Positions 5,789-63,011 of a DNA stretch of 64,000 nucleotides are shown here, one piece after another; positions within the stretch are counted from its first letter, which is position 1; every line of letters begins with the position of its first letter. Where the stretch lies: the NCBI GenBank assembly GCA_016432465.1, contig CP066690.1:786724-850723 (forward strand), read 5' to 3'. The stretch is from Candidatus Sungiibacteriota bacterium (GTDB lineage: Bacteria > Patescibacteriota > Minisyncoccia > Sungbacterales > HO2-52-23). The translations under genes and the position numbers were made by a program. The notes beneath the pieces are model-generated. The model did no database searches, was not told the DNA's origin, and was given only the letters and a program-made list of their open reading frames with translations.

Positions 5789-5819
5789 CCCTCAATATAA
5801 ATATGGCAGTCAAAAATAA

Positions 5820-5925
5820 ATCCCCCCACCTTCCCAGTGGGGTAGTGGACCCCGCGGGAAGGATTTCTACGGCGTCTATTCATCCTCGCAGCAAGCTACG
5901 GGGTATTCTAGGAAGGTGGGGGGAT
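5820..5925. repeat. TIR element copy 2 (inverted relative to copy 1)
   Basis: Reverse complement of 4342-4446 with a few substitutions. Confidence 0.8.
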
Positions 5926-5943
5926 AAACAATATCTTGGGTTT

Positions 5944-7860
5944 TTGCGCCTAGCAGCAGCGTCACCTCCTCTTAGAATTGGTGACGTAGACTATAATGTT
6001 AAAAAAATTTTGGAATTTGCCAAACGCGCTGATAAAGAGTCGGTTGATATCCTCGTATTTCCCGAGCTTTCCATTACTGCCTATACTGCGTCGGATTTAT
6101 TCTTTAACCGCACACTTCTTGCGCAGGCCCTTAACGGCCTTGCTAGAATTCGTCTGGCTTCCCGCGCTCTGGGCAGCGTACTTGTTGTGGGCGTTCCTAT
6201 TGCGCAGGAAGGAAAGCTTTTTAACACCGCGGCCGTGGTTTTTAAAGGAAAAGTTTATGGTCTCGTTCCGAAAACCTACGTTCCCGGATACAAAGAGTTT
6301 TATGAAGAGCGCTGGTTTGCTTCGGCCCGGGATTTGGTAGTCAAAGAAATTATGCTGGGTGGCCAGATGATTCCCTTTGGCACTGATATTTTGTTTCGTA
6401 TGCCCAAAATTTCCGGCGCGGTTCTGGGCGTGGAAATCTGCGAAGATCTTTGGATGCCTATGCCTCCCAGCTCTTTTCAGGTCCTCCGCGGCGCAACTAT
6501 TATTGCCAATCTTTCTGCATCCAACGATTTGGTGGGAAAGGCGGACTATCGCAGAGCGCTTGTTACCCAGCAGTCTGCCCGTGGAGTTTGTGCCTATGTT
6601 TATAGTTCCTGCGGCGTGCATGAATCAACTACGGATGTTGTTTTTGGGGGACATGCCTTGATTGCCGAAAACGGTGCGCTTCTTGCCGAGTCCAAACGAT
6701 TTATAAGAGAGGGCGAGATGACCCTCGCCGATATTGATGTAGAACATATGCTAGTGGATCGCGAACGCATGACGAGTTTCGGCGAATCAATACACGAGTC
6801 GCCGCAAAAAGAATTTCGTATAATTGATATTCCTTTACCAATACCTTTTCATCCGATTCCCAGACGTTTTATTGACCCTAATCCCTTTGTTCCTTCCAAT
6901 CCGGAGGAACGAGACCTTCGCGCCAAAGAAATTTTCTCCATTCAGGTGGCGGGGCTGGCCAAGCGTCTGGAGGCGGCCAAAATAAATAAAATGATTTTGG
7001 GTCTTTCTGGGGGACTGGATTCTACTTTGGCGCTGCTTGTAGCAGTTAAGACAGCCGAAACCCTTAACCTGCCTCATAAAAATATTTTTACCTATACCAT
7101 GCCCGGATTCGGAACTTCGCATCGTACTAAAAATAATGCTGTAAAACTGGCTCGGGCTTTAGGGGTAAACATAGAAACTATTGATATAATCAAAGGCGTA
7201 CTTCAGCAGTTCAAAGACATTAAACATAGTCCTAACGAAGAGAATACTGTCTTTGAAAATGCGCAGGCAAGATACCGCACCTATACTCTTATGGATAAGG
7301 CCAATCAAATTCATGGCTTGGTGATTGGCACCGGCGATCTTTCGGAAATTGCTCTGGGCTGGAATACTTACACCGGAGATCATATTGCGCATTACAACGT
7401 AAACTGCAGTGTACCTAAAACTTTGGTAAGATATCTGGTGCAATGGGCGGCTGAAACCCAAGTGGATAAAAAAACGCGGCGCATTCTTGAGGATATTTTG
7501 GCCACACCCATCTCACCCGAGCTTAGGAAAAATCATAAACCCGGCGAAATTTCTCATCGGACCGAAAAGCTTATCGGGCCTTACGAGTTGCATGACTTTT
7601 TCCTGTATCACTTTATCCGTTGGGTCTCTTCTCCTAAAAAGATTCTTTTCTTGGCGGAGCACTCATGGGGCAAAAAATACAAAACCCCAGAACTTAAAAA
7701 ATGGCTTAAGGTATTTTTGCAAAGATTTTTTGGCTCTCAATGGAAAAGGTCTGTGGCCACTGACGGCCCCAAGGTTGGATCGGTTTCTCTCTCTCCCCGC
7801 GGGGACTGGCGAATGCCGTCCGATGCCGAGGTTAAAATGTGGAGTGAGGAATTAAAATGA
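5944..7860 (+). CDS. nadE: Glutamine-dependent NAD+ synthetase (N-terminal nitrilase-like + C-terminal NAD synthase domains)
   Basis: VDILVFPELSITAYT (CN-hydrolase) and LGLSGGLDSTLAL (PP-loop). The start is proposed at TTG 5944 (LRLAAASPPLRIGDVDYN...), because the 5' extension of the ORF back to 5803 only translates the repeat. Confidence 0.8.
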   Translation: MRLAAASPPLRIGDVDYNVKKILEFAKRADKESVDILVFPELSITAYTASDLFFNRTLLAQALNGLARIRLASRALGSVLVVGVPIAQEGKLFNTAAVVFKGKVYGLVPKTYVPGYKEFYEERWFASARDLVVKEIMLGGQMIPFGTDILFRMPKISGAVLGVEICEDLWMPMPPSSFQVLRGATIIANLSASNDLVGKADYRRALVTQQSARGVCAYVYSSCGVHESTTDVVFGGHALIAENGALLAESKRFIREGEMTLADIDVEHMLVDRERMTSFGESIHESPQKEFRIIDIPLPIPFHPIPRRFIDPNPFVPSNPEERDLRAKEIFSIQVAGLAKRLEAAKINKMILGLSGGLDSTLALLVAVKTAETLNLPHKNIFTYTMPGFGTSHRTKNNAVKLARALGVNIETIDIIKGVLQQFKDIKHSPNEENTVFENAQARYRTYTLMDKANQIHGLVIGTGDLSEIALGWNTYTGDHIAHYNVNCSVPKTLVRYLVQWAAETQVDKKTRRILEDILATPISPELRKNHKPGEISHRTEKLIGPYELHDFFLYHFIRWVSSPKKILFLAEHSWGKKYKTPELKKWLKVFLQRFFGSQWKRSVATDGPKVGSVSLSPRGDWRMPSDAEVKMWSEELK

Positions 7861-7869
7861 TACCCGAAG

Positions 7870-8060
7870 CAGAGCCTAAAGAATTTAAAAAGTGGAGCCC
7901 CACGCGCAGAGCGCGTGGCACCCTGTGTTGCGGGGTTCCTCCCACGCTCGCGCGTGGGGCGGAACCCCGCACCGAGGGTCATTTCATCCACGGGAAGTAA
8001 GACTTCCCACGGGCAAAGCCCGTGGCCCTCTGGTGCGCGGGTAGCTATGGGGTGGCCACC
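7870..8060. repeat. Cluster of GC-rich palindromes (REP-like), including GGGAAGTAAGACTTCCC at ~7992-8008
   Basis: CCACGCGCAGAGCGCGTGG, CCCACGCTCGCGCGTGGG, GGGAAGTAAGACTTCCC and CACGGGCAAAGCCCGTG hairpins in ~190 bp of noncoding DNA. Confidence 0.6.
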
Positions 8061-13145: not shown

Positions 13146-13260
13146 GACGTCCTCCCCCTGCTGGCAATGTTTAAAGTTTAAACTTTTTTGTTAAAAAAAA
13201 CAAGCGAAAACCCACACCGAATTTTGGTGTGGGAAGTCTGACTTTCTGTGGGTGATTGGG

Positions 13261-16833: not shown

Positions 16834-18168
16834 ATGTATGAGAAAGTCTACGACGTCGCCATTATTGGCGGAGGGGTTACTGGCACAGCCCAAGCGTATA
16901 TCTTTTCTTATTTTGTGGAGGGGGTTTCCCGGATTTTGCTCGTTGAGAAAAATAATAATGTGGCGCTGGTAAATTCGCACACAGTCAGCAACGCCCAAAC
17001 ACTGCATGGCGGCGATACAGAAACAAATTTTGGTTTAGAGAAGGCGTTGAAGATGAGAGACGCGGAGCGAATGCTCTCGGCGTTTCTTGAGAAATTTAGT
17101 CACGGTCAGGGCGCATTCCGCCGGCTCTATAAAATGGCTTTTGGAGTAGGGGAGAAAGAGGTTCGGATTCTCTCCGAGCGCTTTGCCATGATTAGGAGCT
17201 ATTATCCTACTTTGCAGTTTCTGGGACGCGAGGAGCTGGTGCGCATTGAACCGAAGCTCTTGGAAGGACGTGATCCCAGCATACCCGTAGCAGCGCTTTA
17301 TCGTCCCAATGGTTATGCGGTGGATTATCGAAAACTGGCAGAGTGTTTTGTGGCTGAAGCCAAAAAAACAGGCAAAGTGGAAATTTTACTTGGCACAAAA
17401 ACGAATGAGATCATAAGGCGGGGCAATCTCTTTGAGATACGCACATCCAAAGGCAATTATCTTGCTAAAGCCGTGATGGTGGCAGCAGGACCCTATAGTC
17501 TTCTTTTTGCTCACGCCTTGGGTTATGCCGGGGATTATACAATTCTTCCGGTTGCCGGAAATTTCTACCACACTAAGGCTGTCTGTTTTCCTGGAAAGGT
17601 ATATGGTGTTCAAGATCCTGTATTACAGTTTACCGCAGCGCATATTGATTCTTCCGTGGATAATCCTGGAAAGATGCGTCTTGGTCCTACGGCTGACGTT
17701 GTTCCTCTTCTTGAAAAACACCACTGGATGACTTTTATAGACTTCTTGCGTACGGGGATCATTGGGTTACGCGGTGCCCGCGCTATTGCCAAGATTTTTT
17801 GCAACTGGAAGGTTGTGAAATTTGCAGCGCGTAACATCGTCTACAAGCTTCCTGTTGTTGGTAAATGGTACTTTTTGAAAAAGGCAGCGCAGAAACTCGT
17901 ACCCACCCTTCGTTATCGTGATATCCAGTTTGCCAAAGGAGAGGGTGGTATCAGGCCGCAGTTGGTGAACGTAGAAGAGGGGCGACTGGAAATGGGTACA
18001 GGGAAGATTTTGGGCGATAGTATTATTTTTGATATCACCCCTTCGCCCGGGGCTTCGGACTGTTTGAGGAATGCTGTGGTAAACGCTAAGCACGTCGTCC
18101 AACTTTCAGGCGGTGCATACGTTTTTGACGAAGAAAGTTTTCAGAAGGAGTTCGGCCTCCACACCTAG
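16834..18168 (+). CDS. FAD-dependent oxidoreductase (DAO/L-2-hydroxyglutarate-oxidase-like); candidate functional substitute for L-aspartate oxidase
   Basis: N-terminal dinucleotide-binding motif YDVAIIGGGVTGTA, 444 aa. It sits immediately upstream of nadA-nadC and carries the shared operator. Confidence 0.5.
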   Translation: MYEKVYDVAIIGGGVTGTAQAYIFSYFVEGVSRILLVEKNNNVALVNSHTVSNAQTLHGGDTETNFGLEKALKMRDAERMLSAFLEKFSHGQGAFRRLYKMAFGVGEKEVRILSERFAMIRSYYPTLQFLGREELVRIEPKLLEGRDPSIPVAALYRPNGYAVDYRKLAECFVAEAKKTGKVEILLGTKTNEIIRRGNLFEIRTSKGNYLAKAVMVAAGPYSLLFAHALGYAGDYTILPVAGNFYHTKAVCFPGKVYGVQDPVLQFTAAHIDSSVDNPGKMRLGPTADVVPLLEKHHWMTFIDFLRTGIIGLRGARAIAKIFCNWKVVKFAARNIVYKLPVVGKWYFLKKAAQKLVPTLRYRDIQFAKGEGGIRPQLVNVEEGRLEMGTGKILGDSIIFDITPSPGASDCLRNAVVNAKHVVQLSGGAYVFDEESFQKEFGLHT

Positions 18169-18318
18169 CGGTGGAGGTTTTTCTTTTATCTTTCGTCCTC
18201 CAGAAAACGCGGCAGCTTGGGAAGTCAGACTTCCCTTGCTGCCGAGTAGTTCATCACCTTTATCATTGAGCGGTTGATGCCCTCTTGACTTTTTTTGAAG
18301 AGCGCGTTACACCTTACT

Positions 18319-31827: not shown

Positions 31828-31900
31828 TCCGGTGTAGCTCAGTGGTAGAGCGGCTCCCTGTTAAGGAGACGGTCGCAGGTTCGAATCCTGCCACCGGAGC
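31828..31900 (+). tRNA. tRNA-Asn (anticodon GTT)
   Basis: TCCGGTG/CACCGGA acceptor, anticodon loop CTGTTAA, T-loop GGTTCGAATCC. Confidence 0.8.
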
Positions 31901-32306
31901 AAAGGGCGTGATTTGGGGTAGAAATCCCCGAATCGTGCCTTCACTGGGGGCTTTTCCGAGGTTCGAATATTATTTCGAGGTTCGGAGAGCTCCAACGCAT
32001 GATGAGAAAGTGTCATGAGCAATGCACCGCTAGGAATGGCGGTGTTTTGCTTTTGTTCGAATTTTTTCCATGCGGGGGTAAACTTTGCGAGTATTTCGAA
32101 GGCTTTGCTGTACTACAGTTCACAGTATTACGATGGCATAAACCTCACGCAGTTGAGGCCGCGAGTTGTTGCTTTCAAAACATATAAAACACACGACGGC
32201 ACTCTAATAGAGTTGTTTCAAGGAAACCGTGGGATGAGACCGGATCTCGATTTTGTTATAAAGATTTTTATCCCCGGGATATGGGAATAGATGAAAATTA
32301 GCAACC

Positions 32307-32828
32307 TTATCGAGGCACCGGTAATCCTATTTTTTGCAGCGGTAAGTAATTGAAGTAATATTGACACCCAACTGAAATAACATAATCGAGCGTATCTTTA
32401 TATGCGGGATTTTTGAACCAATCGTTGAGAATATAGACATATTCAACCTCGATATTCAGCGGTGCCATAAGTTTGCGATATTGTTTTTTCTTAAAGTCGC
32501 AAGTTTGTAGCTTCTCATCAACCGATCCCGCGACTTTCTGAAATTTCATCTCAATAATAAAGAGTGTGTTATTTACGATTACATATAAGGCCTCGTCTGG
32601 AAAAAGACGCTTCGAAACTAATTTATGCCAATTGATCTTCCTTTCCAATAACAACTTATATAGCCCCTGCTTGCGGTAACTGCGAGCTACTTCTTTGCCA
32701 CGATAATAAATTACACTGCCTTTCACAGAATAATCCTTAGCCTTTTTGAGAATTTCTAAAATATCGCGCTCTTTCTCAAAATTTAATCCCGTAATTGTAT
32801 TTCCCCCTCCTACACCTTTTGCCTTCAT
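32307..32828 (-). CDS. Putative type II restriction endonuclease (PD-(D/E)xK)
   Basis: FPDEALYVIVNNTLFIIEMK (PD...ExK spacing), 173 aa, 5 bp downstream of and co-directional with a DNA methyltransferase. Confidence 0.4.
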   Translation of the reverse strand: MKAKGVGGGNTITGLNFEKERDILEILKKAKDYSVKGSVIYYRGKEVARSYRKQGLYKLLLERKINWHKLVSKRLFPDEALYVIVNNTLFIIEMKFQKVAGSVDEKLQTCDFKKKQYRKLMAPLNIEVEYVYILNDWFKNPAYKDTLDYVISVGCQYYFNYLPLQKIGLPVPR

Positions 32829-32833
32829 AATTT

Positions 32834-34315
32834 TTATATTTTATTAAATTTTAGTGATAGATTTCGATTCAATTCTTCAAAGCGTTTAACGGATAAATCT
32901 AAAAATTTTGGTTCGGTATCGATGCCTATAAATTTTCTACCATGAAGATAGGCCGCGATGCCAGTAGTGGAACTCCCGGTGAATGGGTCAATAACTAAAT
33001 CACCTTTATTTGTGCTTGCGAGTACTATTCTTTTTAACAAATCTTCTGGTTTTTGTGTAGGATGTTTCCCAAACCTTTTTTCTATCGGTCTTGGCGTGCC
33101 CATTGACCAAACCGAGCGCATTTGGAGACCTGGTTTTTTTAAATTATCCTCTGCCCAATGGCCATTTTTCATTAGATCATAATTGAATGTATGTTTCGCC
33201 TTTCTTTCTTTTCTCGCCCAAATTAAGGTTTCGTGACTTGCGGTAAAATATCGGCAACTAAGATTCGGTGACGCGTTTGGTTTAAACCACGCAATATCGT
33301 TTAAGATATGATAACCGAGGGCCTGTAGGGCGTGACCACACTGATAAATTGAATGGTAAGTACCACTGACCCAAAGAGTGCCGTGCGGCTTCAAAACTCT
33401 CCGACACGCCTCCATCCATTTGTAATGAAAATCATAGTCATCTTTGAACCCCTTGCTTTTGTCCCAATCTCCCTTATTCACGCTAACCATTCGCCCTGCG
33501 TGAACCGTAAAGCCGCCATTGGAAAGGTTGTAAGGTGGATCGGCAAAAATCATATCAACTGAGTTTTCTGGAAGTTTTGCCAGTACATTGAGACAATTCG
33601 CTTGGTAAAGTTTAAACCCTGGCTTTTCATAATATGGTTTTGATGTAGTTACTTTCTGTTCTCTGTTGTAGAATTTTATTTCTGGAGAAATTTCTAATGG
33701 GGTAGTGTTGATGTTCTCACGAATAACATCGAGAACTATTCCTTGTATTGAAACATCCCGGCCATTTCTAAAAATAAGCGGCTCCATGCTTCTATTTGCT
33801 GGCTGTAAACGGATATGACCGCGCTCTCTATAAAATTTCTTTAGCGTCGCTTCGTGATTGTCTATAAGCGCAACTACTTTTTGGCCATTGTCAGCAACGG
33901 CTTGTTGTTTCACTAAAACGACATCGCCGTCGTTAATATTCTCGTCAATCATACTGTTGCCAACTACGCGGAGGGCATAGAATTCACCACCTCGAGGCAA
34001 CTTACTTTGAGGGACCGCGATGGTTTCCTTTTCTTGTATCGCTTCAATCGGCTGGCCCGCGGCAATAGTCCCGAGTAGCGGGATTTTCACCAGCCTGGCG
34101 GCTTTTTCCACTAAACTAATACCACGCGTCGAATTATCATCTTTAGTAATAAATCCCTTATCTGCCAAAGTTCCGATATGCTGGTGGATCGTAGAAAGTG
34201 ATGCGAGTCGGAAGTGTTTTTTAATTTCTTCCAAAATTGGTGAAAGGCCCTTCTTGTTGATATAGGACTTGGTATAGTCGTAGATTTGTTTTTGTCGCTT
34301 GGTTAGAGTAGCCAT
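32834..34315 (-). CDS. LexA (complete wHTH + S24 autopeptidase) fused to C-terminal beta-class N6-adenine/N4-cytosine DNA methyltransferase
   Basis: Residues 1-200 align with LexA: LTKRQKQIYDY, cleavage-site IPLLGTIAAGQP, catalytic VVGNSM Ser and LKKF Lys. Residues ~270-490 carry IFADPPYN (motif IV) then DPFTGSSTTGIAA (motif I). Confidence 0.75.
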   Translation of the reverse strand: MATLTKRQKQIYDYTKSYINKKGLSPILEEIKKHFRLASLSTIHQHIGTLADKGFITKDDNSTRGISLVEKAARLVKIPLLGTIAAGQPIEAIQEKETIAVPQSKLPRGGEFYALRVVGNSMIDENINDGDVVLVKQQAVADNGQKVVALIDNHEATLKKFYRERGHIRLQPANRSMEPLIFRNGRDVSIQGIVLDVIRENINTTPLEISPEIKFYNREQKVTTSKPYYEKPGFKLYQANCLNVLAKLPENSVDMIFADPPYNLSNGGFTVHAGRMVSVNKGDWDKSKGFKDDYDFHYKWMEACRRVLKPHGTLWVSGTYHSIYQCGHALQALGYHILNDIAWFKPNASPNLSCRYFTASHETLIWARKERKAKHTFNYDLMKNGHWAEDNLKKPGLQMRSVWSMGTPRPIEKRFGKHPTQKPEDLLKRIVLASTNKGDLVIDPFTGSSTTGIAAYLHGRKFIGIDTEPKFLDLSVKRFEELNRNLSLKFNKI

Positions 34316-34402
34316 AAACGATTGACTCAGCGTACTTATTTTCTTACACTATCAGTATACCGAAGATTTGCCGAAGATGTAACAAGTGAGTTATCCACAG
34401 AC

Positions 34403-35347
34403 ATGGGAACAAAAACATCAAATCCAAAAAGACAGCATTATGTACCGGCCTGCTATTTAAGAGAATTTACTGATCCGCGAGACGGATTGCTTTGGATATT
34501 TAATAAAGACGGGAAAAATGTTCGTAGACAGAAACCAGAAAAAACTTTTACATCAAATCATCTCTACACGATAAAAATAAGTGGCACCAAGGACTACCGC
34601 ATCGAACAAACACTTTCGAATATTGAAGGTAACTACGCCGGTATATTTCAAAGTAAAATCAAGAAGAAACTCCTTCTAACAGACTACGAACACATTATTT
34701 TATGTGTTTTTGTTGCAGCCCAACTTCAAAGGACATTGCGCATGAAGAAGAATCATGAAAATTTCATCCAACAGATTATAGATCACGGCAAACAGCTATT
34801 AATGGTTCACGGTAAGAATACTAATTCTAAGCAAATACAAGAATGGGAATCGTATAAAAATGACATCCATAAACTTCAGTTGTTAGATGGGTTGCCCTTT
34901 TTAACTAAAATTTTGCATCAGATGAGTGTTGCGTTTGTATGCTCGGCAAATCCTCAAAAACACTGGTTCATTACATCTGATGATCCATGCACTCTTTTCA
35001 ACCCAGATTTACAATGGCAGCGTTTTTATGGCCCGGGTTTTGGACAGAAGAATGTGCAACTAACGATGCCTCTATCGCCGGAAATAACTGTTTTCTTTTG
35101 CTGGGCTAATTATCATGGCTATTCACTTGCTGACGGCTATACGGTGGAAGAAATGATGAATAGGATGACGCGCGGGCACTGTCACAAAGAATTTGTATCT
35201 CCATTTGGCAATAAAAAATGGATATGGTTTAGTAGGATTCCTTTGGACCCGATATTTCTAATCAAAGTGTTAAAAACACGGCTTCGCTTTTTCTTGCATG
35301 ATGTAAAAATAAAGTGGAGGCGGCGTAAGTGCAAACGATATGAATGA
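34403..35347 (+). CDS. DUF4238-like protein
   Basis: N-terminal QHYVPACYLREF and C-terminal WFITSDDPCTLF match the two DUF4238 signature blocks as I recall them. Start MGTKTSN is preferred over the upstream alternative at 34322. Confidence 0.5.
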   Translation: MGTKTSNPKRQHYVPACYLREFTDPRDGLLWIFNKDGKNVRRQKPEKTFTSNHLYTIKISGTKDYRIEQTLSNIEGNYAGIFQSKIKKKLLLTDYEHIILCVFVAAQLQRTLRMKKNHENFIQQIIDHGKQLLMVHGKNTNSKQIQEWESYKNDIHKLQLLDGLPFLTKILHQMSVAFVCSANPQKHWFITSDDPCTLFNPDLQWQRFYGPGFGQKNVQLTMPLSPEITVFFCWANYHGYSLADGYTVEEMMNRMTRGHCHKEFVSPFGNKKWIWFSRIPLDPIFLIKVLKTRLRFFLHDVKIKWRRRKCKRYE

Positions 35348-37082
35348 TCTAGTCGAAAAAATTAAAGAAGTAGAGGCATCTTCGTTATCTGACGCAGAAA
35401 AGCTACAGCAGTTTGTAAATTTCATGGTCTCGCTTAAACCCGTTGATAATTCAGCGGCTTTAGTATTAGCTTGCACCTACGGAATATCTTCTGCGCAGAG
35501 ATTAGGTAGGTCAGAGATGGAAGCGCAATTTTATATAACTAGGGCTAAAGTATTCATTATGCAAACTGGTACTCTGATCCATGAGATGAAAAATATTACT
35601 TTAGCACCGCACTGGTTTCAGTTTGCTCTTGAGTCAGAAAAGAAAAGGTATGCCGAACTGGATATGCAAGTCAAAAAAATCTGGAGCGATGTTCAAGCTG
35701 ATATAGAAAAAGCATTTGAGGCGATCAATAAAAATCGTATCGCTGGTGCCGTTGCCTTCGTCTTAAAAACTACTGGTGAAGTTTATGGTCAATACTATTT
35801 ACAACTCAGGTTGTACTGTTTTAAATCAAAGTCGCCGTTTCATGCTCGGTTAGCAAACATGAAAATTTTTCGATGGATTGGGGCCGATGATTTTTTCGTT
35901 CTCAGTAAGGAGGCTAGAGGTAAACTTAAAACTGTGAAAAATGATTGTTTAACAAACCTATATAAAGCGATTGCTCTTTTTAAGCAACATAAGAATTACG
36001 ACTACCTGGCTGACGCCCTGCTTGCTCTTTCAACAGAATATCGTTCTTTCCAAAGTCCAATAAGGTCAAGATTTTATCTTACTCAAGCGGAAAGACTGAT
36101 AAAAAAGCATAAACTAACAGAACTTGAAGGCAACTTAGCTCTTATGAAGCGATGGGAGCCATTTAGTAACTATAATCCTAAAAATTTTATGGACATTAAC
36201 AGACTTGTAGAAGCTAATACTGCGTTTAGGAGGTTTGAAAAGGAGCTCTCTGGGTTTAGCGTCTCCGACAATAAAGCAAATAAATTTATGTCTTTGCTGT
36301 TAAGCTCTCTTGAATCTTTTGAGCTTGTTTCTACCCGTTACGCAAATATTAGAAACAAAATACAAGATATACACAAAGAAGAATGGGCGCAGAGAAAAGC
36401 AAATCCAGAAAGAAAATCATGGCCCGCACATCCTGATGAAAAATACTCCTACGCCGCCGTACGAGTAGATGCTGAATCTCTTTTTATATTTGGAATAATC
36501 ATGGTTCGCAGGACCCTCCCATTGATAGAATTGTTTATTCTCGATAAGCCACCGGCTAAAACATTCGAAGATTTGAGCAATTTCTATAGTTGGATTTCAA
36601 CTACCCCGAACCCATCAAAACTAACTGCTGATTTAAGAAATGATTTCGGTCATCATTTCAGATGGCTTTATGCGGTACTAAGATTTTACAGAAATAGATT
36701 TGTTGAGCATCTCAGTGAACCGCGACAACAAGGAATGAACTTTGATTTGGGAGGGAAAAAATTTGCATTACACTCCTATAAGTGGAATTTTAATGCGAAT
36801 GACGAAAAAGCTATTTTGGATTTTAAGAATAAACTGGAAAAAAGAGGTATAACGATACCAAATGAACATAATCCACGACATTATGTACAACTGGTTTTTG
36901 ATAACTTGGATCAGGTTCCCGAAGATTTTCTGCAGGACGCACTAAGATTAATTGATGATATCGGGATAGATTCGCCGTCACCAACAACTTTAATAAATCA
37001 CATTGAGGCGTATCTTCGGGATTTATTTAATTTTATGAGTGATCGTATTGGAGACAGCCACTTGGCTCAATACCGCAAATAA
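35340..37082 (+). CDS. Large hypothetical protein (580 aa, predicted helical)
   Basis: 8-bp overlap with the preceding gene (operon); no motif recognised. Confidence 0.4.
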   Translation: MNDLVEKIKEVEASSLSDAEKLQQFVNFMVSLKPVDNSAALVLACTYGISSAQRLGRSEMEAQFYITRAKVFIMQTGTLIHEMKNITLAPHWFQFALESEKKRYAELDMQVKKIWSDVQADIEKAFEAINKNRIAGAVAFVLKTTGEVYGQYYLQLRLYCFKSKSPFHARLANMKIFRWIGADDFFVLSKEARGKLKTVKNDCLTNLYKAIALFKQHKNYDYLADALLALSTEYRSFQSPIRSRFYLTQAERLIKKHKLTELEGNLALMKRWEPFSNYNPKNFMDINRLVEANTAFRRFEKELSGFSVSDNKANKFMSLLLSSLESFELVSTRYANIRNKIQDIHKEEWAQRKANPERKSWPAHPDEKYSYAAVRVDAESLFIFGIIMVRRTLPLIELFILDKPPAKTFEDLSNFYSWISTTPNPSKLTADLRNDFGHHFRWLYAVLRFYRNRFVEHLSEPRQQGMNFDLGGKKFALHSYKWNFNANDEKAILDFKNKLEKRGITIPNEHNPRHYVQLVFDNLDQVPEDFLQDALRLIDDIGIDSPSPTTLINHIEAYLRDLFNFMSDRIGDSHLAQYRK

Positions 37083-37103
37083 TCTTTTTTAATTACAAAT
37101 ATT

Positions 37104-37589
37104 ATGGCCGCAGGATGGGTACATGCATCGATGGATTTAATGGCGTTTGGACGCAGTTATTTTGATTTGCATAAATACAAAGATCATCCTTGGAGAGAGT
37201 TGGGATATAAGCATAGGCAAATAAATCACGATTGGTATAAAGAATTCGGTAAAAGCTGGAATTTCAATGAACCATTCCCCCCAATAATTCACATGAGAAC
37301 TGATGCTATAGAGAATCCAGATGAGGCGGAACAATTTCAATCGTGGACTTCACACGATTATTTGGATCGTATCTGGGATACTCTTGATTTTGAACGGCGG
37401 AGAAGTTTTGAGCTGGCTTGCAAATGGTTTTTGGAAAACCCCGAAGAACTGAATCGAGTTTACGAAATCGATGTTTTTAGAGGTTTAATTTTCCGTGTTA
37501 TTGACGGAAAAGAAGTAACTGAGAATTGTCCTGAACTCGTCAAAGAATATCAGCGTCTCCGTAGCTATGTGGCAAGGATTAATTTGTAA
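37104..37589 (+). CDS. Hypothetical protein (161 aa), third gene of DUF4238 operon
   Basis: Co-directional, 21 bp after the preceding gene. Confidence 0.35.
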   Translation: MAAGWVHASMDLMAFGRSYFDLHKYKDHPWRELGYKHRQINHDWYKEFGKSWNFNEPFPPIIHMRTDAIENPDEAEQFQSWTSHDYLDRIWDTLDFERRRSFELACKWFLENPEELNRVYEIDVFRGLIFRVIDGKEVTENCPELVKEYQRLRSYVARINL

Positions 37590-37855
37590 ACTTCTTAAGC
37601 TCGTCTAATTCGGGTCAATCTGGTGCCAGTGGTACAAAGCTCTGACCCGGGGTTAATCGCTCGCCACAGGGGCACACAGCTCGTAATTCGCGGTGTTTCT
37701 ACCAGTAGTTCACGATCTTAAACGGAGAAATGTTGCCGGGAATCTGCCAAATAGCGGTTCTAAATGCGTGAAGCGCGCGGAGCAAGATATAGGTAGCGGA
37801 TGGCAAATAAATCTGTTTCTGTGTACAACTCTGGATTTTTCTTGGGATAATTGAT

Positions 37856-39100
37856 ATGGTAACAGTAATGAGGTTTACGCCTAAAAAAATTACACTATTG
37901 ATTGCGGGAGCAGTGTTTACTGCCGGACTTGCAGTGGGCTTTGTTATTCCTGTTTTTGCGGCTGATGATTACAACAGCTCAAGGTCAAATACCTCAATAT
38001 CAGTAGTAAACATACCAATAGCAAACAAACACGTTGGAGATATTCTTTTGCGCTACGGCGCGGGCGGCGCGGAGATCAACGAGGTGACGGACGCTCTTGC
38101 TCGAGGTATTAGCACAGCTGACCTCAAGGCAATGCTGGTTAAGTTTGGTGTAAGCGATACGGGCATTGAGGCGGTCTTTACAAAACTTGATGAGCTTGGG
38201 GCTGGAGCTGATTCTCCCGAAAAAGAATTTACAACAGGAGGGGCGGTTTCTGCTCCTGCCGCGGGGAAAACACCGCAACCAGCAGCAGTAAATCGAGAAG
38301 TTAAGCGAATGAGTGGCAAAGTTTCTGCTCCTAATACACAAGACGATCCAAGACGAGGCAAGGGAAGCGTCAATTTTATAAATAAACCAGACAGAGGCGC
38401 ATTTCACGATACGCAGCAGGAAATTCTTGCAGAGTTTGATAGGTACGAAGAAGGCAAAAGCGTAAGAGAAAAAACAGATAAAATAGAAAAACTCCGAGCC
38501 AACCGCGAAGCATTTCAAACAGAAATAATATCTGTGAATTTAACTATTCGCGAAAACGCAAAAGCGCTTCGCGATAATTTCCGAGAAAATGTAAAAACAA
38601 CAATAGGCCACGTGGACCACGGAAAGACGGCGCGCATTGCCGTTGCCCACGGCAAAGGACTGCGCATGCTCAATCGTTACCGTTCAGCCATGGTCCGGTT
38701 TGACCATATTTTAAGCCGGCTGGAATCGCGTATTGAAAAAATGAGAATTGAATTTGAAGCTGAAGAGCGAGCAAAAACCGGCTCTGTAAATAATACATTT
38801 CCGCCACGCAACATGGCTATTCTTATTGAGAAAGCCAAAAATATGAGCGTTGAAAACGAGGCAAAGATGGAAGAACTTAAGGCAAAATATGAATCCCTGC
38901 TTTTGGGCGAAAATGCAAAGGGAGTCTTAGCCAAATTGACCATCGTTCCTGAAAAAGGGGAGGAAGCCCGCGCGCTCGCCGCAGAACTGAAAACAGACAT
39001 AGAAAACCTCCGCGCCATAATTATTGAGATATATACGCAAGGAGCCGGCTACCGCGGCGGCGTCGATTTCAACAGTTCCAGATCAAATACCAGTATATAA
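37856..39100 (+). CDS. Membrane-anchored/secreted coiled-coil protein with NSSRSNTSI motif at both termini
   Basis: N-terminal TM/signal (LLIAGAVFTAGLAVGFVIPVFA), a long charged helical middle, and the nonapeptide NSSRSNTSI at residues ~40 and at the extreme C-terminus. Confidence 0.4.
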   Translation: MVTVMRFTPKKITLLIAGAVFTAGLAVGFVIPVFAADDYNSSRSNTSISVVNIPIANKHVGDILLRYGAGGAEINEVTDALARGISTADLKAMLVKFGVSDTGIEAVFTKLDELGAGADSPEKEFTTGGAVSAPAAGKTPQPAAVNREVKRMSGKVSAPNTQDDPRRGKGSVNFINKPDRGAFHDTQQEILAEFDRYEEGKSVREKTDKIEKLRANREAFQTEIISVNLTIRENAKALRDNFRENVKTTIGHVDHGKTARIAVAHGKGLRMLNRYRSAMVRFDHILSRLESRIEKMRIEFEAEERAKTGSVNNTFPPRNMAILIEKAKNMSVENEAKMEELKAKYESLLLGENAKGVLAKLTIVPEKGEEARALAAELKTDIENLRAIIIEIYTQGAGYRGGVDFNSSRSNTSI

Positions 39101-39194
39101 TCATGGCTATTTACCCCGTTAGAAGTTCTTGGCAGAAAAATTTTTATAAAAATTTTTCTGCGCTGAATTAACGGGGATATAGTAAAAACAAAGT

Positions 39195-39575
39195 ATGTCA
39201 GAAACAAATTATAATAATCGCATGGAGCAGACTTATAACGGGGCAAGAAAAAACACACTTATCATTGCAATTATTATTCTCGCTGTTGTCGCGGGAGGAG
39301 TATTATTTTTCTTGAATCGGGGCCCTTCGTATCAAAAAGAGTCGCTTACGATTGAGCAGGGTTTGACGCCTATTGAACTTTCTCCAGAAGAACAGCAGGC
39401 GCTTCAAGCCGAAGGACTCGCCATTCCTTCTGGAGAAGACACAGCCGCAAAAAATTTGCAAACCGTGCGAACTTCCGACGAACTTGACGCTATTGGATCC
39501 GATCTCAACGAAACCAATCTATCAGGACTTGATGCCGAATCAGAAGCAATAGAAAGCGACCTCTCTGGGCTATAA
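39195..39575 (+). CDS. Small single-TM protein with acidic C-terminal tail
   Basis: TM LIIAIIILAVVAGGVLFFL; 126 aa. Confidence 0.3.
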   Translation: MSETNYNNRMEQTYNGARKNTLIIAIIILAVVAGGVLFFLNRGPSYQKESLTIEQGLTPIELSPEEQQALQAEGLAIPSGEDTAAKNLQTVRTSDELDAIGSDLNETNLSGLDAESEAIESDLSGL

Positions 39576-39798
39576 ACCTTGATAGGAGTAAAACAGAGGG
39601 CCGAGGGGCGCAACGGGGATTTATTCTTTCCCGCTCGCCACGTTAGAGATCCGCATTGTAAATGCGGCAGATACCATTGGCATCTCATCTCTAACGGGGC
39701 GAGCTGTTCCCGCAAAAAACTCCCGTGCTGGGAGTTTTTTGTTTCCAAACAATAGTGGGTTGAGGCGTGGGGGTAAAATGTTGTAAGATATAAAAAAT

Positions 39799-44093: not shown

Positions 44094-44274
44094 ATCCCCC
44101 CACCTTCCCAGCGTGGTATTGGACCCCGTGGGAAGGATTTCTACAGCGCCCATTCATCCCCGCAGTCCAGCCTTCGTCCCGCTTCTAGCGGGACTACAGT
44201 CGCACGCCGCCATAGCTTTGGCGACGGCGCGCGGAGTAGGCCAAGCTACGAGGTATTCTGGGAAGGTGGGGGGA
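44094..44274. repeat. TIR element copy 4 (~180 bp, with ~75-bp internal insertion)
   Basis: Termini TCCCCCACCTTCCCAG / CTGGGAAGGTGGGGGGA, core collinear with copy 2 plus extra GC-rich segment. Confidence 0.75.
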
Positions 44275-44282
44275 TAAAAGCG

Positions 44283-51345: not shown

Positions 51346-51389
51346 ATCCCCCCACCTTCCCAGAATACTCCGCTGGGAAGGTGAGGGGA
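51346..51389. repeat. TIR element copy 5 (minimal: termini only, 44 bp)
   Basis: TCCCCCCACCTTCCCAG-AATACTCCG-CTGGGAAGGTGAGGGGA. Confidence 0.75.
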
Positions 51390-51428
51390 TTCATTGTCAC
51401 AGAACTACCGTCGTGTTAATCTTTAAAA

Positions 51429-58981: not shown

Positions 58982-59057
58982 ACAGGTAATATAACGTAAT
59001 TTGACTTTATTTGGTCAACATGATAAATTGTCGTAAGAGCATTGCGGAGGCTAAAAC

Positions 59058-59519
59058 ATGAGGATTTTCTTTATCTGCAAGGTGAGGGGAGTAACTGAAG
59101 ATAGTGAAGAGTATCAAAGGCAAAAGGCATATGTTGAGGAATGGGAACGCCAAGGGCATGAAGTGCATTGGCCGCATCGAAACACAGAGCAGAAGGATCC
59201 TAAACACGGCACTGGAATATGCCGCACGACCTTTTGGGCTATTTTTTGGTCAGATGAGGTGCGCGTGTTATTTGATCCTACAAGTGAAGGTTTTATTGCG
59301 GATATGATGATGACTTTTGCTCTGAAAGAGCTGGGTAACAATAACCTCTTTAAACGGTTTGTTGGGAGGAGAAAAGTTGTTGTCATGAATCCAGAGGCGC
59401 TGGAGAGAAAAATCGCAGAAGAAATAGAACAACAGATTATAAAAGGAGCAGATCCGCTTTTTGTAAAAAGTTATGCTATGGTTCTTCAGGATTTTGCCCG
59501 TGAGACGGCGAGTTTCTAG
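59058..59519 (+). CDS. Hypothetical protein (153 aa)
   Basis: Clean ORF followed by terminator hairpin GTCCAACATTTAACGTTGGAC plus T-run at ~59533-59560. Confidence 0.35.
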   Translation: MRIFFICKVRGVTEDSEEYQRQKAYVEEWERQGHEVHWPHRNTEQKDPKHGTGICRTTFWAIFWSDEVRVLFDPTSEGFIADMMMTFALKELGNNNLFKRFVGRRKVVVMNPEALERKIAEEIEQQIIKGADPLFVKSYAMVLQDFARETASF

Positions 59520-59597
59520 TTATGTCCAACGCGGTCCAACATTTAACGTTGGACATTTTTTATAATCCGGCAGACTAATTATTGTGGATAAATCCCC

Positions 59598-59727
59598 TTG
59601 ACTTTTTAAATAGGAGGATTATAATATAGGTGTGAGTGTCTTTTAGGAGGTGTTCCGCTTACAGCGGAGTATTCCTAAAACTCCAATTTGTCCGCGTAAA
59701 ACCCCCTTTCGGGGGTTTTACGTTTTG
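59598..59727 (+). ncRNA. Candidate small RNA: promoter TTGACT-16-TATAAT, ~95-nt transcribed region ending in intrinsic terminator GTAAAACCCCCTTTCGGGGGTTTTAC+T-run
   Basis: Promoter-to-terminator unit with no convincing ORF, 400 bp upstream of murB. Confidence 0.3.
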
Positions 59728-60123
59728 GATGGGTCTCATCCACACCAAGCAGATAAAATATGAAGCTCCACGGGCAAGCCTGTGGTATCCACGGTTTCAT
59801 GGTTAAGCCTGTGGTCTTCTGGTGCGTGGATAAAAGTCTAGGGGGGTCACAGAGGGTTTAACTCCAATACACTTGTCCTTCGTCCCCCACCCAACTTTGA
59901 CCGGAGATTTACTTACAAGGCGCCAGAAGGGTTTAACTCCAAAACTTTGTCCTTATGTGAGTGCCGGCTTCTGACGCCGTGAAAATAAAATGTCAAAGTT
60001 GGGTGGGGAATAAATGAGTGCCTGCTCCATAGCCCATCAAGAAAAAGGTGGGAGGATGAATGAGTGTCTCTAGTAAACCTTCTTGCTTAAACCCCTCATT
60101 ATTATATAACATAGATCTGTAGC

Positions 60124-61161
60124 ATGCCAGTAACTATAAAAGAAAATATCTCCCTCGCGCCCCACACTATATATAAAATAGGGGGGCCTGCGCGATATTT
60201 TGTGGAGACGAAAAATTCAGATGAGCTTAAACAGGCGCTTGATTTTGTAGCAACAAAAAAAGTTCCTATTTTTGTTTTGGGAGCAGGCTCAAATATATTA
60301 GTGAGCGATAAGGGGTTTGATGGTTTGGTAATTCGTATGGCCGGCGGGGAAGTTAAGGTTGAGGGCGAGAGATTGACTGCGGATGCCGGAGTTATGATGG
60401 CGCAAGCGGTATTGAAATCAGCGCAGGCTGCTTTAAGCGGTTTTGAATGGGCCATCGGAGTTCCCGGAACTATTGGCGGATCGGTGCGGGGCAATGCCGG
60501 GTGTTTCGGCGCAGAGATGAAAGATGTCGTTGAATCGGTGAAAATTCTTGACTTGGGGAAGTCGGACTTCCCAAGGAAGTCCGACTTCCTGATATTGAAA
60601 AATACACAGTGTGAGTTCTCGTATCGCGATTCAATTTTCAAAAAACATCCGGAGTGGATTATTCTTTCCGCGACCCTAAAACTTCAAAAAGGAGATCCTG
60701 CTAAAATTCAGGAGAAAATAAAACGCATTACTGCCGAGCGCGCACAAAAACAGGACATTGGCACCAAATCCTGCGGGTGTATTTTTAAAAATATTTCTTG
60801 GGCCCCGTTAGAGGTAAGCCGCCCCTTGGCGGCTGCCGCCGTGCCGTCCGGGCAGGGCGGACCTCTAACGGGGTGGGCAAGAAAAGATATAAATAAGGAA
60901 AAGATTCTTTCACAATTTCCCGAGCTTGAACAATTTAAGGATCAACCCAATGTCCCGGCCTCGTTTCTTATTGATAGGGCAGGACTTAAAGGAAAAAGTG
61001 TTGGACATGTTTTTATCTCCCCAAAACACGCCAATTATTTTGTAAATGAGGGCGGTGCAACGGCTGAAGGGGTTGTCACGCTTATTGGGATTGCCAAAGA
61101 CACCGTGCGACATAAGTATGAATTGTCGCTTGAGGAAGAAATACAGTATGTGGGATTTTAA
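60124..61161 (+). CDS. murB: UDP-N-acetylenolpyruvoylglucosamine reductase, with two in-frame palindromic insertions
   Basis: N-terminal FAD-binding domain (IYKIGGPARYFVE...VPIFVLGAGSNILV), and a C-terminal domain ending EEEIQYVGF. About 45 extra residues relative to typical MurB, located at the palindromes. Confidence 0.8.
   Translation: MPVTIKENISLAPHTIYKIGGPARYFVETKNSDELKQALDFVATKKVPIFVLGAGSNILVSDKGFDGLVIRMAGGEVKVEGERLTADAGVMMAQAVLKSAQAALSGFEWAIGVPGTIGGSVRGNAGCFGAEMKDVVESVKILDLGKSDFPRKSDFLILKNTQCEFSYRDSIFKKHPEWIILSATLKLQKGDPAKIQEKIKRITAERAQKQDIGTKSCGCIFKNISWAPLEVSRPLAAAAVPSGQGGPLTGWARKDINKEKILSQFPELEQFKDQPNVPASFLIDRAGLKGKSVGHVFISPKHANYFVNEGGATAEGVVTLIGIAKDTVRHKYELSLEEEIQYVGF
60555..60589. 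repeat. GGGAAGTCGGACTTCCC palindrome (1.9 copies) in-frame inside murB (encodes GKSDFPRKSDF)
   Basis: Same palindrome family as 7992, 13231 and 18219, which are otherwise intergenic. Confidence 0.8.
60804..60873. repeat. GC-rich palindromic insertion inside murB (CCCCGTTAGAGGT ... ACCTCTAACGGGG arms)
   Basis: 13-bp inverted arms around a GC-rich core, translated in-frame as an Ala/Gly/Pro-rich loop. Confidence 0.6.
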
Positions 61162-61223
61162 GGGCTTGGCCTAAATTTTCAATCCCGACTGGTCGGGAGA
61201 AGAAAATTTAGCTGCCAAACCTT

Positions 61224-61375
61224 AACCCCGCACTAATTTTGCCGCGTAAATCTGGGCAGTGCACCATTGAAACCTGAAATGGAATACATTTGCAGCCCGC
61301 GCGTGCCGAATAGGCACACACCGTTATGGGTGAGGCGGGCTGCCCCGTTTCATGTTGCAAAATTAGTGCGGGGTT
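61224..61375. repeat. 19-bp inverted repeat pair (AACCCCGCACTAATTTTGC ... GCAAAATTAGTGCGGGGTT) enclosing ~115 bp
   Basis: Perfect inverted repeats immediately after the murB stop, at the edge of the high-GC insert. Confidence 0.7.
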
Positions 61376-61581
61376 GATGACTATTGCAAGATTTAAATGG
61401 ATATGGTATTATGAAATTATAAAAAAGCTAAGCTCTTTTGATTAAGTTTGCGAGTTCGCCATAGCGTTTGGCGTGTTTGGAAAGCACTTCAAACGCTGTG
61501 GCGAATGGGAGGGTTAAATCGGTGCTCGCATGGTGCGACTGCCGACAAAACCGCGCTACGGCTCGTGCAAGGAGGCCCATC

Positions 61582-62190
61582 ATGGGCGACCATACCAATC
61601 TCATCATTACTGCAGTGAACACGCTGACTGCGAACGCGGACCTGGGGTCATTAGATCCCGAACGGTTCCAGGTCCAGGACCGGATCATTCGCGATGGGCA
61701 GCGCGCCGGTCGCGAGTTCCGGAAGTTTCTCGAGCTCGGCGCCGAAATCCAAATTGTGGTGCCTGAGCTCCATGTCATCGACTGTCGTATCGCCTCGATG
61801 CCACGAGAGTGGCGAGAGACTGGGTGGAAAGTCGAGTGGCACCGCAACCTCGGGCATCAGGTCTTCACGCCTGATGCCATCCGTCTGCACCTCGCCGAGG
61901 AGCAGAAGGATGGCAGGATCGTGCGCGGCGACAAGCTGCGCAAGATCATCGAGACCGAGCCGGTCCTCACGGACAACTGGCTTGACTTTCTCCTCGAGCA
62001 TCCGGAGTTCATACCGGAGTCGTGGAAGGGGAAGGCCATCTTCTTCTGGGGGACTGGCTACCGCCACCCCGACGGCGGCCTCTACGTCCGTTTCCTCTCT
62101 TTTAGTGTTGGGCTGTGGTACTGGCGCTGCTACTGGCTCGGCATCGACTGGTCTCAGTCGTACCCGGCTGCGGTGCTCGCAAGCTCCTGA
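61582..62190 (+). CDS. Hypothetical protein within high-GC insert (start at MGDHTNL assumed)
   Basis: Longest ORF in a ~0.9-kb GC-rich segment that also yields overlapping ORFs in all frames. Coding status uncertain. Confidence 0.3.
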   Translation: MGDHTNLIITAVNTLTANADLGSLDPERFQVQDRIIRDGQRAGREFRKFLELGAEIQIVVPELHVIDCRIASMPREWRETGWKVEWHRNLGHQVFTPDAIRLHLAEEQKDGRIVRGDKLRKIIETEPVLTDNWLDFLLEHPEFIPESWKGKAIFFWGTGYRHPDGGLYVRFLSFSVGLWYWRCYWLGIDWSQSYPAAVLASS

Positions 62191-62351
62191 TCGCTTGGTC
62201 GCTGGGTCACTTGTGCGCAAGGCACTTTGACCCTCTGACCCTTACCTGCCATCAGGCAGGCAAAGAGTCGGTTCACCCCTGGTGGACCGACTCTTAAATT
62301 AACTATGATTGAAGTCGAACTTCAATCATTAAAACTTCAATCATTAACTGC

Positions 62352-62449
62352 CACGGCGGAGGAAGTGGCGACTCTTGTTGAAACTGCAAAAGATACTGTG
62401 CGGAGAAAGTACGGCTTGCTACTTGAGGAGGAGATACAGTATGTTGGGT
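62352..62449 (+). pseudogene. Orphan divergent duplicate of the murB 3' end (encodes ...EEVATLVETAKDTVRRKYGLLLEEEIQYVGFV*)
   Basis: About 75% nt identity to 61065-61161 (EGVVTLIGIAKDTVRHKYELSLEEEIQYVGF*), with no upstream murB body. Confidence 0.7.
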
Positions 62450-62513
62450 TCGTTTGATACCCCTAAAAAGCTATGCTAAACTGTTTTTGTGGTTCTTTTT
62501 GGGGGCGTAAATA

Positions 62514-63011
62514 ATGCGGAAACTAGGCAAGTTCTTTCGTGCTGGTATTATTTTAGTGGCTATTTGGGTTTTTGGATTCTATGCGGGGTATCAGTACAGC
62601 TGGCGAGAGAGTGCTTGGCTCAAGGCAGGAGATTTTTATATGGCAGATTTTGATTTACACGGTTGGACAATAGCCGAGGTTAATACCGCAGGACGTCTGA
62701 GAGCTATCTTATGGGAAGAGATGCGGAAATTGGAAGAGGGCAAAAAACTGCCATATGCGAAGTGGGAAGTCAAACTCGGAACTCACAAGAAGACAAAGAG
62801 GCCGGCACTTCTTGTTATTAAACATCGTACTCTTTATTGGTCACCTGTCGTTATATATTCAGTAAATATGAAAGATATGGATTTGGTGAATGGCCCGAGG
62901 TTGCGTCCCATAATGGAGTCTGTGAAGAGTAGTAACCCAGAAGTTGTATACAAAGAATTTATAAGATCGGATGTCGTACCGGTAGTTTATCGACGACTTT
63001 ATCAAGATTGA
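62514..63011 (+). CDS. Hypothetical membrane-anchored protein (N-terminal TM)
   Basis: TM helix GIILVAIWVFGFYAGY; 165 aa. Confidence 0.35.
   Translation: MRKLGKFFRAGIILVAIWVFGFYAGYQYSWRESAWLKAGDFYMADFDLHGWTIAEVNTAGRLRAILWEEMRKLEEGKKLPYAKWEVKLGTHKKTKRPALLVIKHRTLYWSPVVIYSVNMKDMDLVNGPRLRPIMESVKSSNPEVVYKEFIRSDVVPVVYRRLYQD

Follow-up and report, generated by a model that had tools for sequence, protein, structure and literature searches.

Two palindromic elements lie in frame within murB

Near the end of a 64-kb stretch of contig CP066690.1 (hereafter the window, 64,000 nucleotides in all), from a Candidatus Sungiibacteriota bacterium of the Candidate Phyla Radiation (CPR, or Patescibacteria), lies murB, an essential cell-wall gene, whose coding sequence in this uncultivated organism contains two palindromic segments. 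We call them element 1, which encodes residues 145-155 of the protein, and element 2, which together with one copy of a short flanking duplication encodes residues 227-251 (Table 1).

A database entry for a Candidatus Sungiibacteriota UDP-N-acetylmuramate dehydrogenase matches the gene product at 100% identity, and the product retains every residue that is invariant across the family. Pfam returned FAD_binding_4 (1.7e-18) and MurB_C (2.4e-24), sequence searches of the PDB matched MurB entries down to E = 3.7e-41, and Foldseek comparison of the predicted model with solved MurB structures gave target-normalised template-modelling scores of 0.87-0.89 among the top matches. Both domains and the MurB fold were thus found, placing the protein in the MurB family. 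The solved MurBs lack both inserted segments.

An initial annotation, made from the sequence alone, had described palindromic elements in frame inside this gene, and both features are indeed present. The 13-nt inverted arms that it gave for the second insertion matched exactly. The doublet that it gave for the first exists and was correctly translated as GKSDFPRKSDF, but it had been placed one base off, at 60555-60589. The ∼45 extra residues attributed to the two insertions come down to 31 when the protein is compared with orthologues of modal length: 6 at the place of element 1 (site 1) and 25 at the place of element 2 (site 2).

This comparison covered 120 MurB relatives at 54-70% identity, with a modal length of 313-314 residues; murB DNA was compared for ten orthologues whose loci were fetched. 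A neighbour-joining tree of the 120 proteins was star-like and serves as a rough guide only. At site 2, 102 of the 120 orthologues show the modal, empty length, and the window's insert is shared with P0002 only. At site 1, 66 orthologues are of modal length and 52 carry extra residues.

Table 1. Positions in the window of murB, the two elements and their relatives
Feature	Coordinates	Strand	Description
murB coding sequence, host of both elements	60124..61161	+	345 residues, intact open reading frame (ORF)
Element 1, inverted doublet	60556..60590		GGGAAGTC-G-GACTTCCC, spacer A, AGGAAGTC-C-GACTTCCT
Probable outer right arm of element 1	60588..60598		CCTGATATTGA, encodes L-I-L-K, fits the consensus CCNAAYATTGA
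Element 1 single unit, intergenic	18219..18235		GGGAAGTCAGACTTCCC, 1 mismatch, nested in a longer hairpin CGGCAGC..GCTGCCG
Element 1 diverged unit, intergenic	13231..13247		GGGAAGTCTGACTTTCT, 3 mismatches
Element 1 diverged unit, intergenic	7992..8008		GGGAAGTAAGACTTCCC, 2 mismatches
Element 2, 71 nt, resembling a miniature transposable element with inverted repeats (MITE)	60803..60873		13-nt terminal inverted repeats, two internal GC-rich hairpins, Y-shaped fold
Target-site duplication TGGG, left copy	60799..60802		Read from the sequence; single TGG-N in empty-site orthologues
Target-site duplication TGGG, right copy	60874..60877		Read from the sequence
Element 2 family member, intergenic	39633..39704		CCACGTTAGAGAT ... 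ATCTCTAACGGGG, arms extended to 18 nt
Element 2 family, composite or degenerate member	39114..39243		CCCCGTTAGAAGT ... TTAACGGGG ... ACTTATAACGGGG; overlaps the start of ORF 39195..39575

Element 2 is bounded by a target-site duplication

The arms of element 2, CCCCGTTAGAGGT and ACCTCTAACGGGG, were found exactly at 60803-60815 and 60861-60873. Empty-site orthologues (L004-L007) read TGG-N-CGN-AAR at the corresponding position and carry no element. As the element and one copy of its duplication amount to 71 + 4 = 75 nt, the insertion adds 25 residues; their sequence, APLEVSRPLAAAAVPSGQGGPLTGW, is rich in Ala, Gly and Pro and follows the FKN active-site strand. Element 2 is stop-free in two of the three frames on either strand, and its RNA is predicted to fold with −59.9 kcal/mol (z = −6.5).

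A second case was found in the murB gene of orthologue L003 (P0044), which contains a 65-nt sister element, CCCCGTTAGAAGT..ACTTCTAACGGGG, lying five codons further downstream and read in a different frame (PVRS...TSNGV, as against PLEV...PLTG in the window). The sister element is bracketed by TTGA/TTGA, and taking out 69 nt restores K-N-I-D-K-E. Two independent insertions of the same family in murB, each with a duplication of its own, are strong evidence for transposition.

The window holds the family at three loci. The intergenic copy at 39633-39704 lies between the stop codon of ORF 39195..39575 and the terminator-like hairpin of that ORF, and has the same Y-shaped predicted fold (−38.5 / −45.1 kcal/mol).

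The element 2 family is found in genes of many phyla

One genome per species was scanned with the pattern CCCGTTAGARNT-N25-55-ANYTCTAACGGG. Termini of the form (C/T)CCCGTTAGAR..YTCTAACGGG(G/A) were found at at least 120 loci in at least 120 genomes, assigned to at least eight phyla: Patescibacteria (many classes), Planctomycetota, Omnitrophota, Delta- and Gammaproteobacteria, Nitrospirota, WOR-3, KSB1 and Clostridia. Among the matches listed, to which the counts of this section refer, the 12-nt termini recur almost unchanged in 121 copies found in other genomes, and the base outside the CCCG/CGGG pairs occurs as C..G in 74 copies and as T..A in 36. An exact 4-nt direct repeat flanks 70 of 119 copies, compared with 2 of 119 in a shifted control. 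These duplications comprise 22 different tetramers with the consensus TNNA, T at position 1 and A at position 4 each being present in 62 of the 70.

Copies measure 50-80 nt, with some near 36 nt, and 80 of 121 have a length divisible by three (p = 2e-13). Such a strong three-base periodicity indicates that a large share of the copies lies within genes. Twenty-nine listed copies lie in stop-free frames with at least 40 codons on each side, and the length of 28 of them is divisible by three. The termini hold a stop codon in one frame (CGT TAG / TTC TAA) and are stop-free in four of the six; copies within genes use only the two stop-free frames, PVR[NSD]..SNG or PLE[IV]..LTG. Ten host ORFs were checked and encode SecA, the DNA polymerase III alpha subunit (DnaE), UvrA, a sulfatase, a glycosyltransferase, an M17 aminopeptidase, GatB, a Mur ligase, UvrC and a class II aminoacyl-tRNA synthetase. 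Some loci have 2-5 copies within 8 kb, and further copies adjoin start codons. In two Planctomycetota (L074 4877-4939 and L093 3652-3714) a copy lies in a prepilin leader, where it duplicates the GFT of the cleavage motif and reads KGFT-PLEV...LLTGFT-MVEL; judging from this sequence, the insert would be removed along with the leader peptide.

The Y-shaped fold, an outer stem with two hairpins, is predicted for many copies, including both murB copies and the one at 39633-39704. The sequences of the inner hairpins vary among copies while their pairing is kept, and copies lie either way round with respect to their host gene and are also found between genes, which argues for a role of the structure at the DNA level. 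A consensus of 20 Y-type copies (MAFFT/RNAalifold) recovered the outer stem and the second hairpin, the first hairpin being misaligned.

Several candidate relatives were discarded. The integron attC site does not fit, as the order of the core is reversed (GTT...AAC in place of AAC...GTT) and the 7-mers do not match the attC consensus RYYYAAC/GTTRRRY. In L074 and L093, a site like the terminus lies upstream of a gene for a small four-helix bundle; it proved a chance match with one mismatch, and no partner end accompanies it. Across the whole window, Rfam at the gathering score recognized two tRNAs only and neither element; a permissive Rfam search of 60500-60950 gave chance-level matches to microRNA-like hairpins only. 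Four matches to the family were found in viral contigs, so that phages are no obvious reservoir of it.

Element 1 is an inverted doublet of a second dispersed palindrome

The element 1 unit GGGAAGTCGGACTTCCC was found exactly at 60556-60572 and its inverted partner AGGAAGTCCGACTTCCT at 60574-60590, with one base between them. Counted as 15-nt arms (60557-60571 and 60575-60589), the two halves are 100% complementary around a 3-nt spacer that forms the loop CAA, and the predicted RNA fold has −30 kcal/mol (z = −6.7). Element 1 is thus an inverted doublet of a 15-17 nt palindrome, similar to the doublets of repetitive extragenic palindromic sequences (REPs) known as REPINs, and represents a second dispersed family.

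In the window, the palindrome gave ten strand-matches at four loci, compared with 0.15 expected by chance, and AAGTC-N-GACTT is the joint commonest 5-N-5 palindrome. The copies at 7992, 13231 and 18219 reported by the initial annotation exist and are all intergenic, but each is imperfect (Table 1). They had also been placed inside terminator-like hairpins; in fact these units have no T-tails and lie beside such hairpins, not within them. One terminator-like hairpin (13211-13233) adjoins the 13231 unit and another (18154-18179) lies about 40 nt upstream of the 18219 unit. The 7992 unit is part of a GC-rich intergenic run of adjacent hairpins (7900-8060), to which Rfam gave no match.

Metagenomes were scanned with AAGTCSGACTT-N5-11-AAGTCSGACTT, which returned at least 120 stretches holding at least 115 inverted doublets in unrelated contexts. 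Among the matches listed, 62 of 105 doublets lie inside long ORFs, as against 261 of 360 random positions, and they are read in all frames. Their hosts include PNPase, Ile/Val-type, Leu and Cys tRNA synthetases, TopA (topoisomerase I), Mfd and ribonucleotide reductase. A subset of doublets shares the outer arms TCAATRTTNGGG..CCNAAYATTGA, the second of which recurs in about 28 of 230 listed flanks of unrelated metagenome doublets. Orthologue L002 has these arms on both sides, and its arms are 24 nt long; the window probably has one on the right.

Further doublets were observed in single contigs. The stretch L132 995-9603 belongs to a region with five doublets within 11 kb, four of them inside ORFs of 2170 and about 518 residues; the 2170-residue ORF has no Pfam match, and the right flanks of the doublets share CCTAAYATTGA-like arms. 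Three class I aminoacyl-tRNA synthetases with doublets (metagenome contigs L163 1-3003, L186 289-3930 and L206 1532-4729) also carry whole inserted domains, His_Phos_1 in the Ile/Val-type enzymes and an alpha/beta hydrolase in the leucyl-tRNA synthetase.

At site 1 of murB, doublets were found in the window, L002, L001, L005 and L249, a single unit in L004 and a half-decayed doublet in L250, all in the same loop and in the KSDF frame. At element 1, 38 bases are the same in the window and L002, even though the two proteins have just 64% identity. L001 pairs a G>C change in arm 1 with C>G in arm 2, and its spacer reads TTG, the reverse complement of CAA, which looks like exchange between the arms. 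The orthologues bearing KSDF are scattered over the rough MurB tree.

Site 1 itself, at the tip of a beta-hairpin (MurB residues about 141-162), is a hotspot of insertion. At least six unrelated peptide types occupy it in 52 of the 120 orthologues, for example KSDF doublets, SEKLKVKS, FPISNFQFSNKSQISN, TQNAKRKTTTQNLK, LRQAQD..PERSRG and HSERSEES..PSVASLPQDD. Several of these peptides resemble translated repeats. Even the 'empty' loop of P0005 (L006 10430-10460) consists of a heptamer, GCTACAA, repeated four times in tandem and translated as KATSYKLQATS. The hotspot could reflect tolerance of inserts; existing palindromes perhaps also attract new ones, which is speculation.

The inserts fall in predicted loops and are unusually conserved as DNA

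AlphaFold modelled the window's MurB, from an alignment of 120 sequences, with an overall predicted local distance difference test (pLDDT) score of 87.8. Both inserts were placed in loops, as anticipated by the initial annotation. In the model, element 1 forms the tip of a beta-hairpin, in the turn between strands E136-143 and E155-159. The pLDDT falls below 50 only at residues 232-251, within the element 2 insert, which is predicted to form a disordered surface loop there.

Outside the inserts, the window's murB and its orthologues are 67-74% identical at the nucleotide level (41-51% at third positions). Element 2 of the window and that of L001, by comparison, are 92% identical (third positions, 88%), and element 1 is 86-93% identical between the window and its orthologues, the highest value being that against L002. 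The excess of identity ends at the element borders; a recombination tract was considered as the source of the high window/L001 identity and discarded, since the spike is confined within those borders. Read by eye, most of the differences between the two copies of element 2 fall in hairpin loops or preserve pairing. From these sequence comparisons, we read the high identity as constraint or conversion that would act on the hairpins and not on the peptide.

The orthologues that share the insert peptides (P0002, P0007, P0015, P0003 and P0058) all keep the palindromic DNA, one of them with a paired change that preserves a long hairpin. None thus has the peptide without the palindrome, the observation that the initial annotation had named as one that would speak against it. 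Its expectation that relatives lack the insertions holds for element 2, which is absent from most orthologues; the loop of element 1 is hypervariable, and an insertion event cannot be demonstrated there.

Probable insertion of mobile palindromes and alternative explanations

Taken together, these results make it probable that two unrelated, non-autonomous families of small palindromic repeats have joined the coding sequence of murB, where they are read through and lengthen loops of a working enzyme. Both elements are most probably passengers, either selfish or neutral. For element 2, a transposase supplied in trans would make a 4-nt staggered cut at a TNNA-like target (TGGG in murB) and join the element through its 13-nt terminal inverted repeats, gap repair then duplicating the four nucleotides. 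Insertion would be random and followed by a filter of survival, by which in-frame, stop-free copies in permissive loops persist in essential genes. The arms of element 1 may be kept complementary through exchange between them.

Several points weigh against this reading. That the inserts are translated and the enzyme is active is a prediction, and the census within the genome covers 64 kb of roughly 923 kb, with few copies (three loci of element 2 and four of element 1). The window's MurB is nearer to P0003, P0004 and P0005 (75% identity), which have no element 2, than to P0002 (68%), with which it shares the element at the same nucleotide; this sharing requires precise losses, recurrent insertion or the transfer of a patch. 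A search of about 0.9 Mb of fetched loci yielded neither a transposase nor a complete insertion sequence with the termini of element 2, and terminus pairs 0.3-4 kb apart enclose ordinary genes (ribosomal proteins, GspF-like, pilin, tRNA synthetases). The mobilisation of element 2 is therefore inferred from its footprint only; its parent might be of the IS1380/piggyBac-like kind. The taxon labels of the family derive from metagenome bins. As regards element 1, neither a target duplication nor a clean pair of empty and filled sites was found among the orthologues compared, and the murB gene of P0088 (L248 1611-1649) has a perfect 19+1+19 palindrome (39-mer) of the element 1 family in a loop of normal length, for which simple insertion does not account. 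The latter palindrome is TTTTTAATATACGGAAGTC-C-GACTTCCGTATATTAAAAA and encodes HIFNIRKSDFRILKN, with a single KSDF unit.

These last two observations would be expected if element 1 had arisen in place, with no mobile insertion at all, through a switch of template during replication or an inverted duplication within hypervariable sequence that encodes a hairpin. The flipped spacer and paired arm-end change of L001 point the same way, as does L002, which at site 2 has a second, unrelated doublet built of a unit and an inverted unit. Such an origin could explain the upkeep of the palindrome, but not the dispersal of the family: the same 11-nt core is found at more than 100 unrelated metagenome loci in many genes, with outer arms shared by a subset, three further intergenic units lie in the window, and the KSDF orthologues are scattered over the MurB tree. 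We therefore consider an origin in place unlikely. That the inserts are selected features, either messenger RNA (mRNA) structures that pause or tune the translation or decay of murB or functional peptide loops of MurB, appears very unlikely, despite the very stable predicted RNA structures, the high identity of the elements relative to the rest of the gene, third positions included, and the tendency of element 2 substitutions to spare pairing. The inserts are missing from most orthologues (102 of 120 at site 2 and 66 of 120 at site 1), other orthologues have unrelated insert families in the same loop, disorder is predicted for the insert peptide, family members are seen in either direction with respect to their host gene and also between genes, and decayed copies exist, as in P0061.

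The elements might also escape translation, through excision from the mRNA or through ribosomal bypass that takes off from one of the duplicated TGG codons and lands on the other, as in T4 gene 60 and the byp elements of yeast mitochondria. Element 2 does lie between identical TGG codons and forms a strong hairpin. Elements removed in this way would be under no pressure to keep the frame, yet 80 of 121 listed lengths and 28 of 29 copies within ORFs are multiples of three, only the two stop-free frames are used, and both murB inserts are in frame and without stops. Given this three-base periodicity, bypass or RNA excision is extremely improbable.

Insertion of mobile palindromes thus remains our preferred reading, and two extensions of it may be considered. 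Tentatively, and with somewhat less than even confidence, we suggest that the element 2 family is an undescribed cross-phylum superfamily of ultra-small (about 36-80 nt), gene-adapted elements, spread horizontally by a broadly distributed transposase. In a stronger version, the conserved hairpins of element 2 would also act on the host mRNA.

Other repeats and features of the window

The window holds further inverted repeats. A second MITE-like family with 18-nt terminal repeats, ATCCCCCCACCTTCCCAG, occurs at 4341-4446, 5820-5925, 44094-44275 and 51346-51390: two copies of 106 nt in opposite orientations, one of 182 nt and one internally deleted, of 45 nt. Its flanks are TTTA/TAAA, and the copy at 5820 overlaps the 5′ end of a nadE-like ORF (5803..7860) without introducing a stop.

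Just 3′ of murB, at 61224-61375, lies an inverted-repeat element with the termini AACCCCGCAC...GTGCGGGGTT. In P0034 (L007 5418-5481), these termini also enclose an in-frame insert of 64 nt (peptide FTPHLLSAANNLRKAQPTKGAG) at a third murB site, an insert also seen in P0117 and P0120. Another element, with 26-nt arms TCCTTCGTCCCCCACCCAACTTTGAC..., is located at 59876-60017 in the 1.1-kb gap upstream of murB. The unrelated doublet at site 2 of P0007 (L002 725-766), whose layout is like that of element 1, consists of ACAGGGGTTCAACCCCTGTA / TACAAGGGTTGAACCCCTGT and encodes RGSTPVTTRVEPL.

In the relatives L004, L006 and L007, a Peptidase_M24 gene lies 5′ of murB and purD lies 3′. Instead of these genes, the flanks of murB in the window (58982-60123 and 61162-63000) have several inverted-repeat elements and gave no Pfam match. 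Elsewhere, directly after a tRNA-Asn gene (31828-31900), the GC content drops from about 0.47 to 0.39-0.40 over the 6 kb from 32000 to 38000, a stretch that may be an island.

Significance

Selfish palindromes in frame have so far been regarded mostly as an oddity of Rickettsia and a handful of other genomes; we now see the same process in a CPR bacterium. A single MurB loop has been struck by at least six kinds of insert across 120 orthologues, and the element 2 family lies in frame in housekeeping genes of many phyla. This cross-phylum, gene-dwelling family is the most interesting by-product of the analysis. Were it the superfamily suggested above, it would act as a general origin of inserted loops in the essential proteins of uncultivated bacteria. 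If our reading is correct, such insertions would account for part of the so far unexplained length variation and of the low-complexity 'loops' of proteins from metagenome-assembled genomes. Annotators and structure predictors would then have to allow for segments that derive from repeats, and the termini with their TNNA duplication would give a defined footprint for tracing the transposase and dating insertions. The inserts also offer natural experiments on which protein loops can accommodate 20-25 added residues.

Relation to known palindromic elements

Coding palindromes resembling Rickettsia palindromic elements (RPEs) or MITEs are already known, and the element 1 and element 2 families appear to be new families of this kind. 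In the literature searched, their exact motifs were found only as primer coincidences, and no description of either family was found in work on CPR genomes or on in-frame insertions of MITEs.

RPEs are selfish palindromes found in frame in unrelated housekeeping genes, where they encode peptides compatible with the fold, and are also present in intergenic DNA (Ogata et al. 2000, 2002; PMC10969869). They measure about 100-150 bp and are confined to Rickettsia; a CGTC tag terminates RPE-4 and RPE-6 (PMC3733652). The initial annotation had drawn a parallel with these elements, which holds as a way of working: the murB elements are palindromic, in frame and predicted to be tolerated in the fold. 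As family membership it fails, because the murB elements measure 35 and 71 nt, are hosted by Sungiibacteriota and have no CGTC tag at their ends; by description they are set apart. Element 2 differs further in having terminal inverted repeats and a 4-nt duplication and in being distributed over many phyla.

Intragenic REPs with GTAG or CGTC tags, often dimers that encode 20-30 residues, have been described in replication and repair genes, uvrA and uvrB among them (Di Nocera et al. 2013; PMC3733652). An inverted dimer is also what element 1 forms, and the two families reported here are also found in UvrA, UvrC, DnaE or Mfd. As a short palindrome arranged in inverted doublets, of which metagenomes yielded at least 115, element 1 resembles REPs and REPINs; it differs from them in having neither GTAG nor CGTC at or beside the ends of the unit. 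Its copies in the window are few, and no gene for a RAYT (an IS200/IS605-type tyrosine transposase) was noticed, no search having been aimed at one.

Bacterial MITEs that make in-frame fusions include ERIC, Coxiella QMITE1 and the MITEs of Anabaena (PMC10969869). With terminal inverted repeats of at least 10 bp, a duplication that varies with the site, small size, no ORF of its own and several copies, element 2 has every structural mark of a MITE apart from a known parent element. It is distinguished by a length at the bottom of the size range, termini found across at least eight phyla and the three-base periodicity of its lengths.

The palindromic amphipathic repeat coding elements (PARCELs) are similar in being coding sequences with dyad symmetry that spread horizontally among distant microbes, but they form tandem 25-residue domains in accessory or membrane proteins, not single insertions with duplicated targets in essential enzymes. 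The GC-cluster or byp elements of mitochondria are small, GC-rich mobile palindromes in protein genes, flanked by matching codons, which break the frame and are bypassed. The murB elements, by contrast, keep the frame and contain no stops, so that read-through is the simpler reading.

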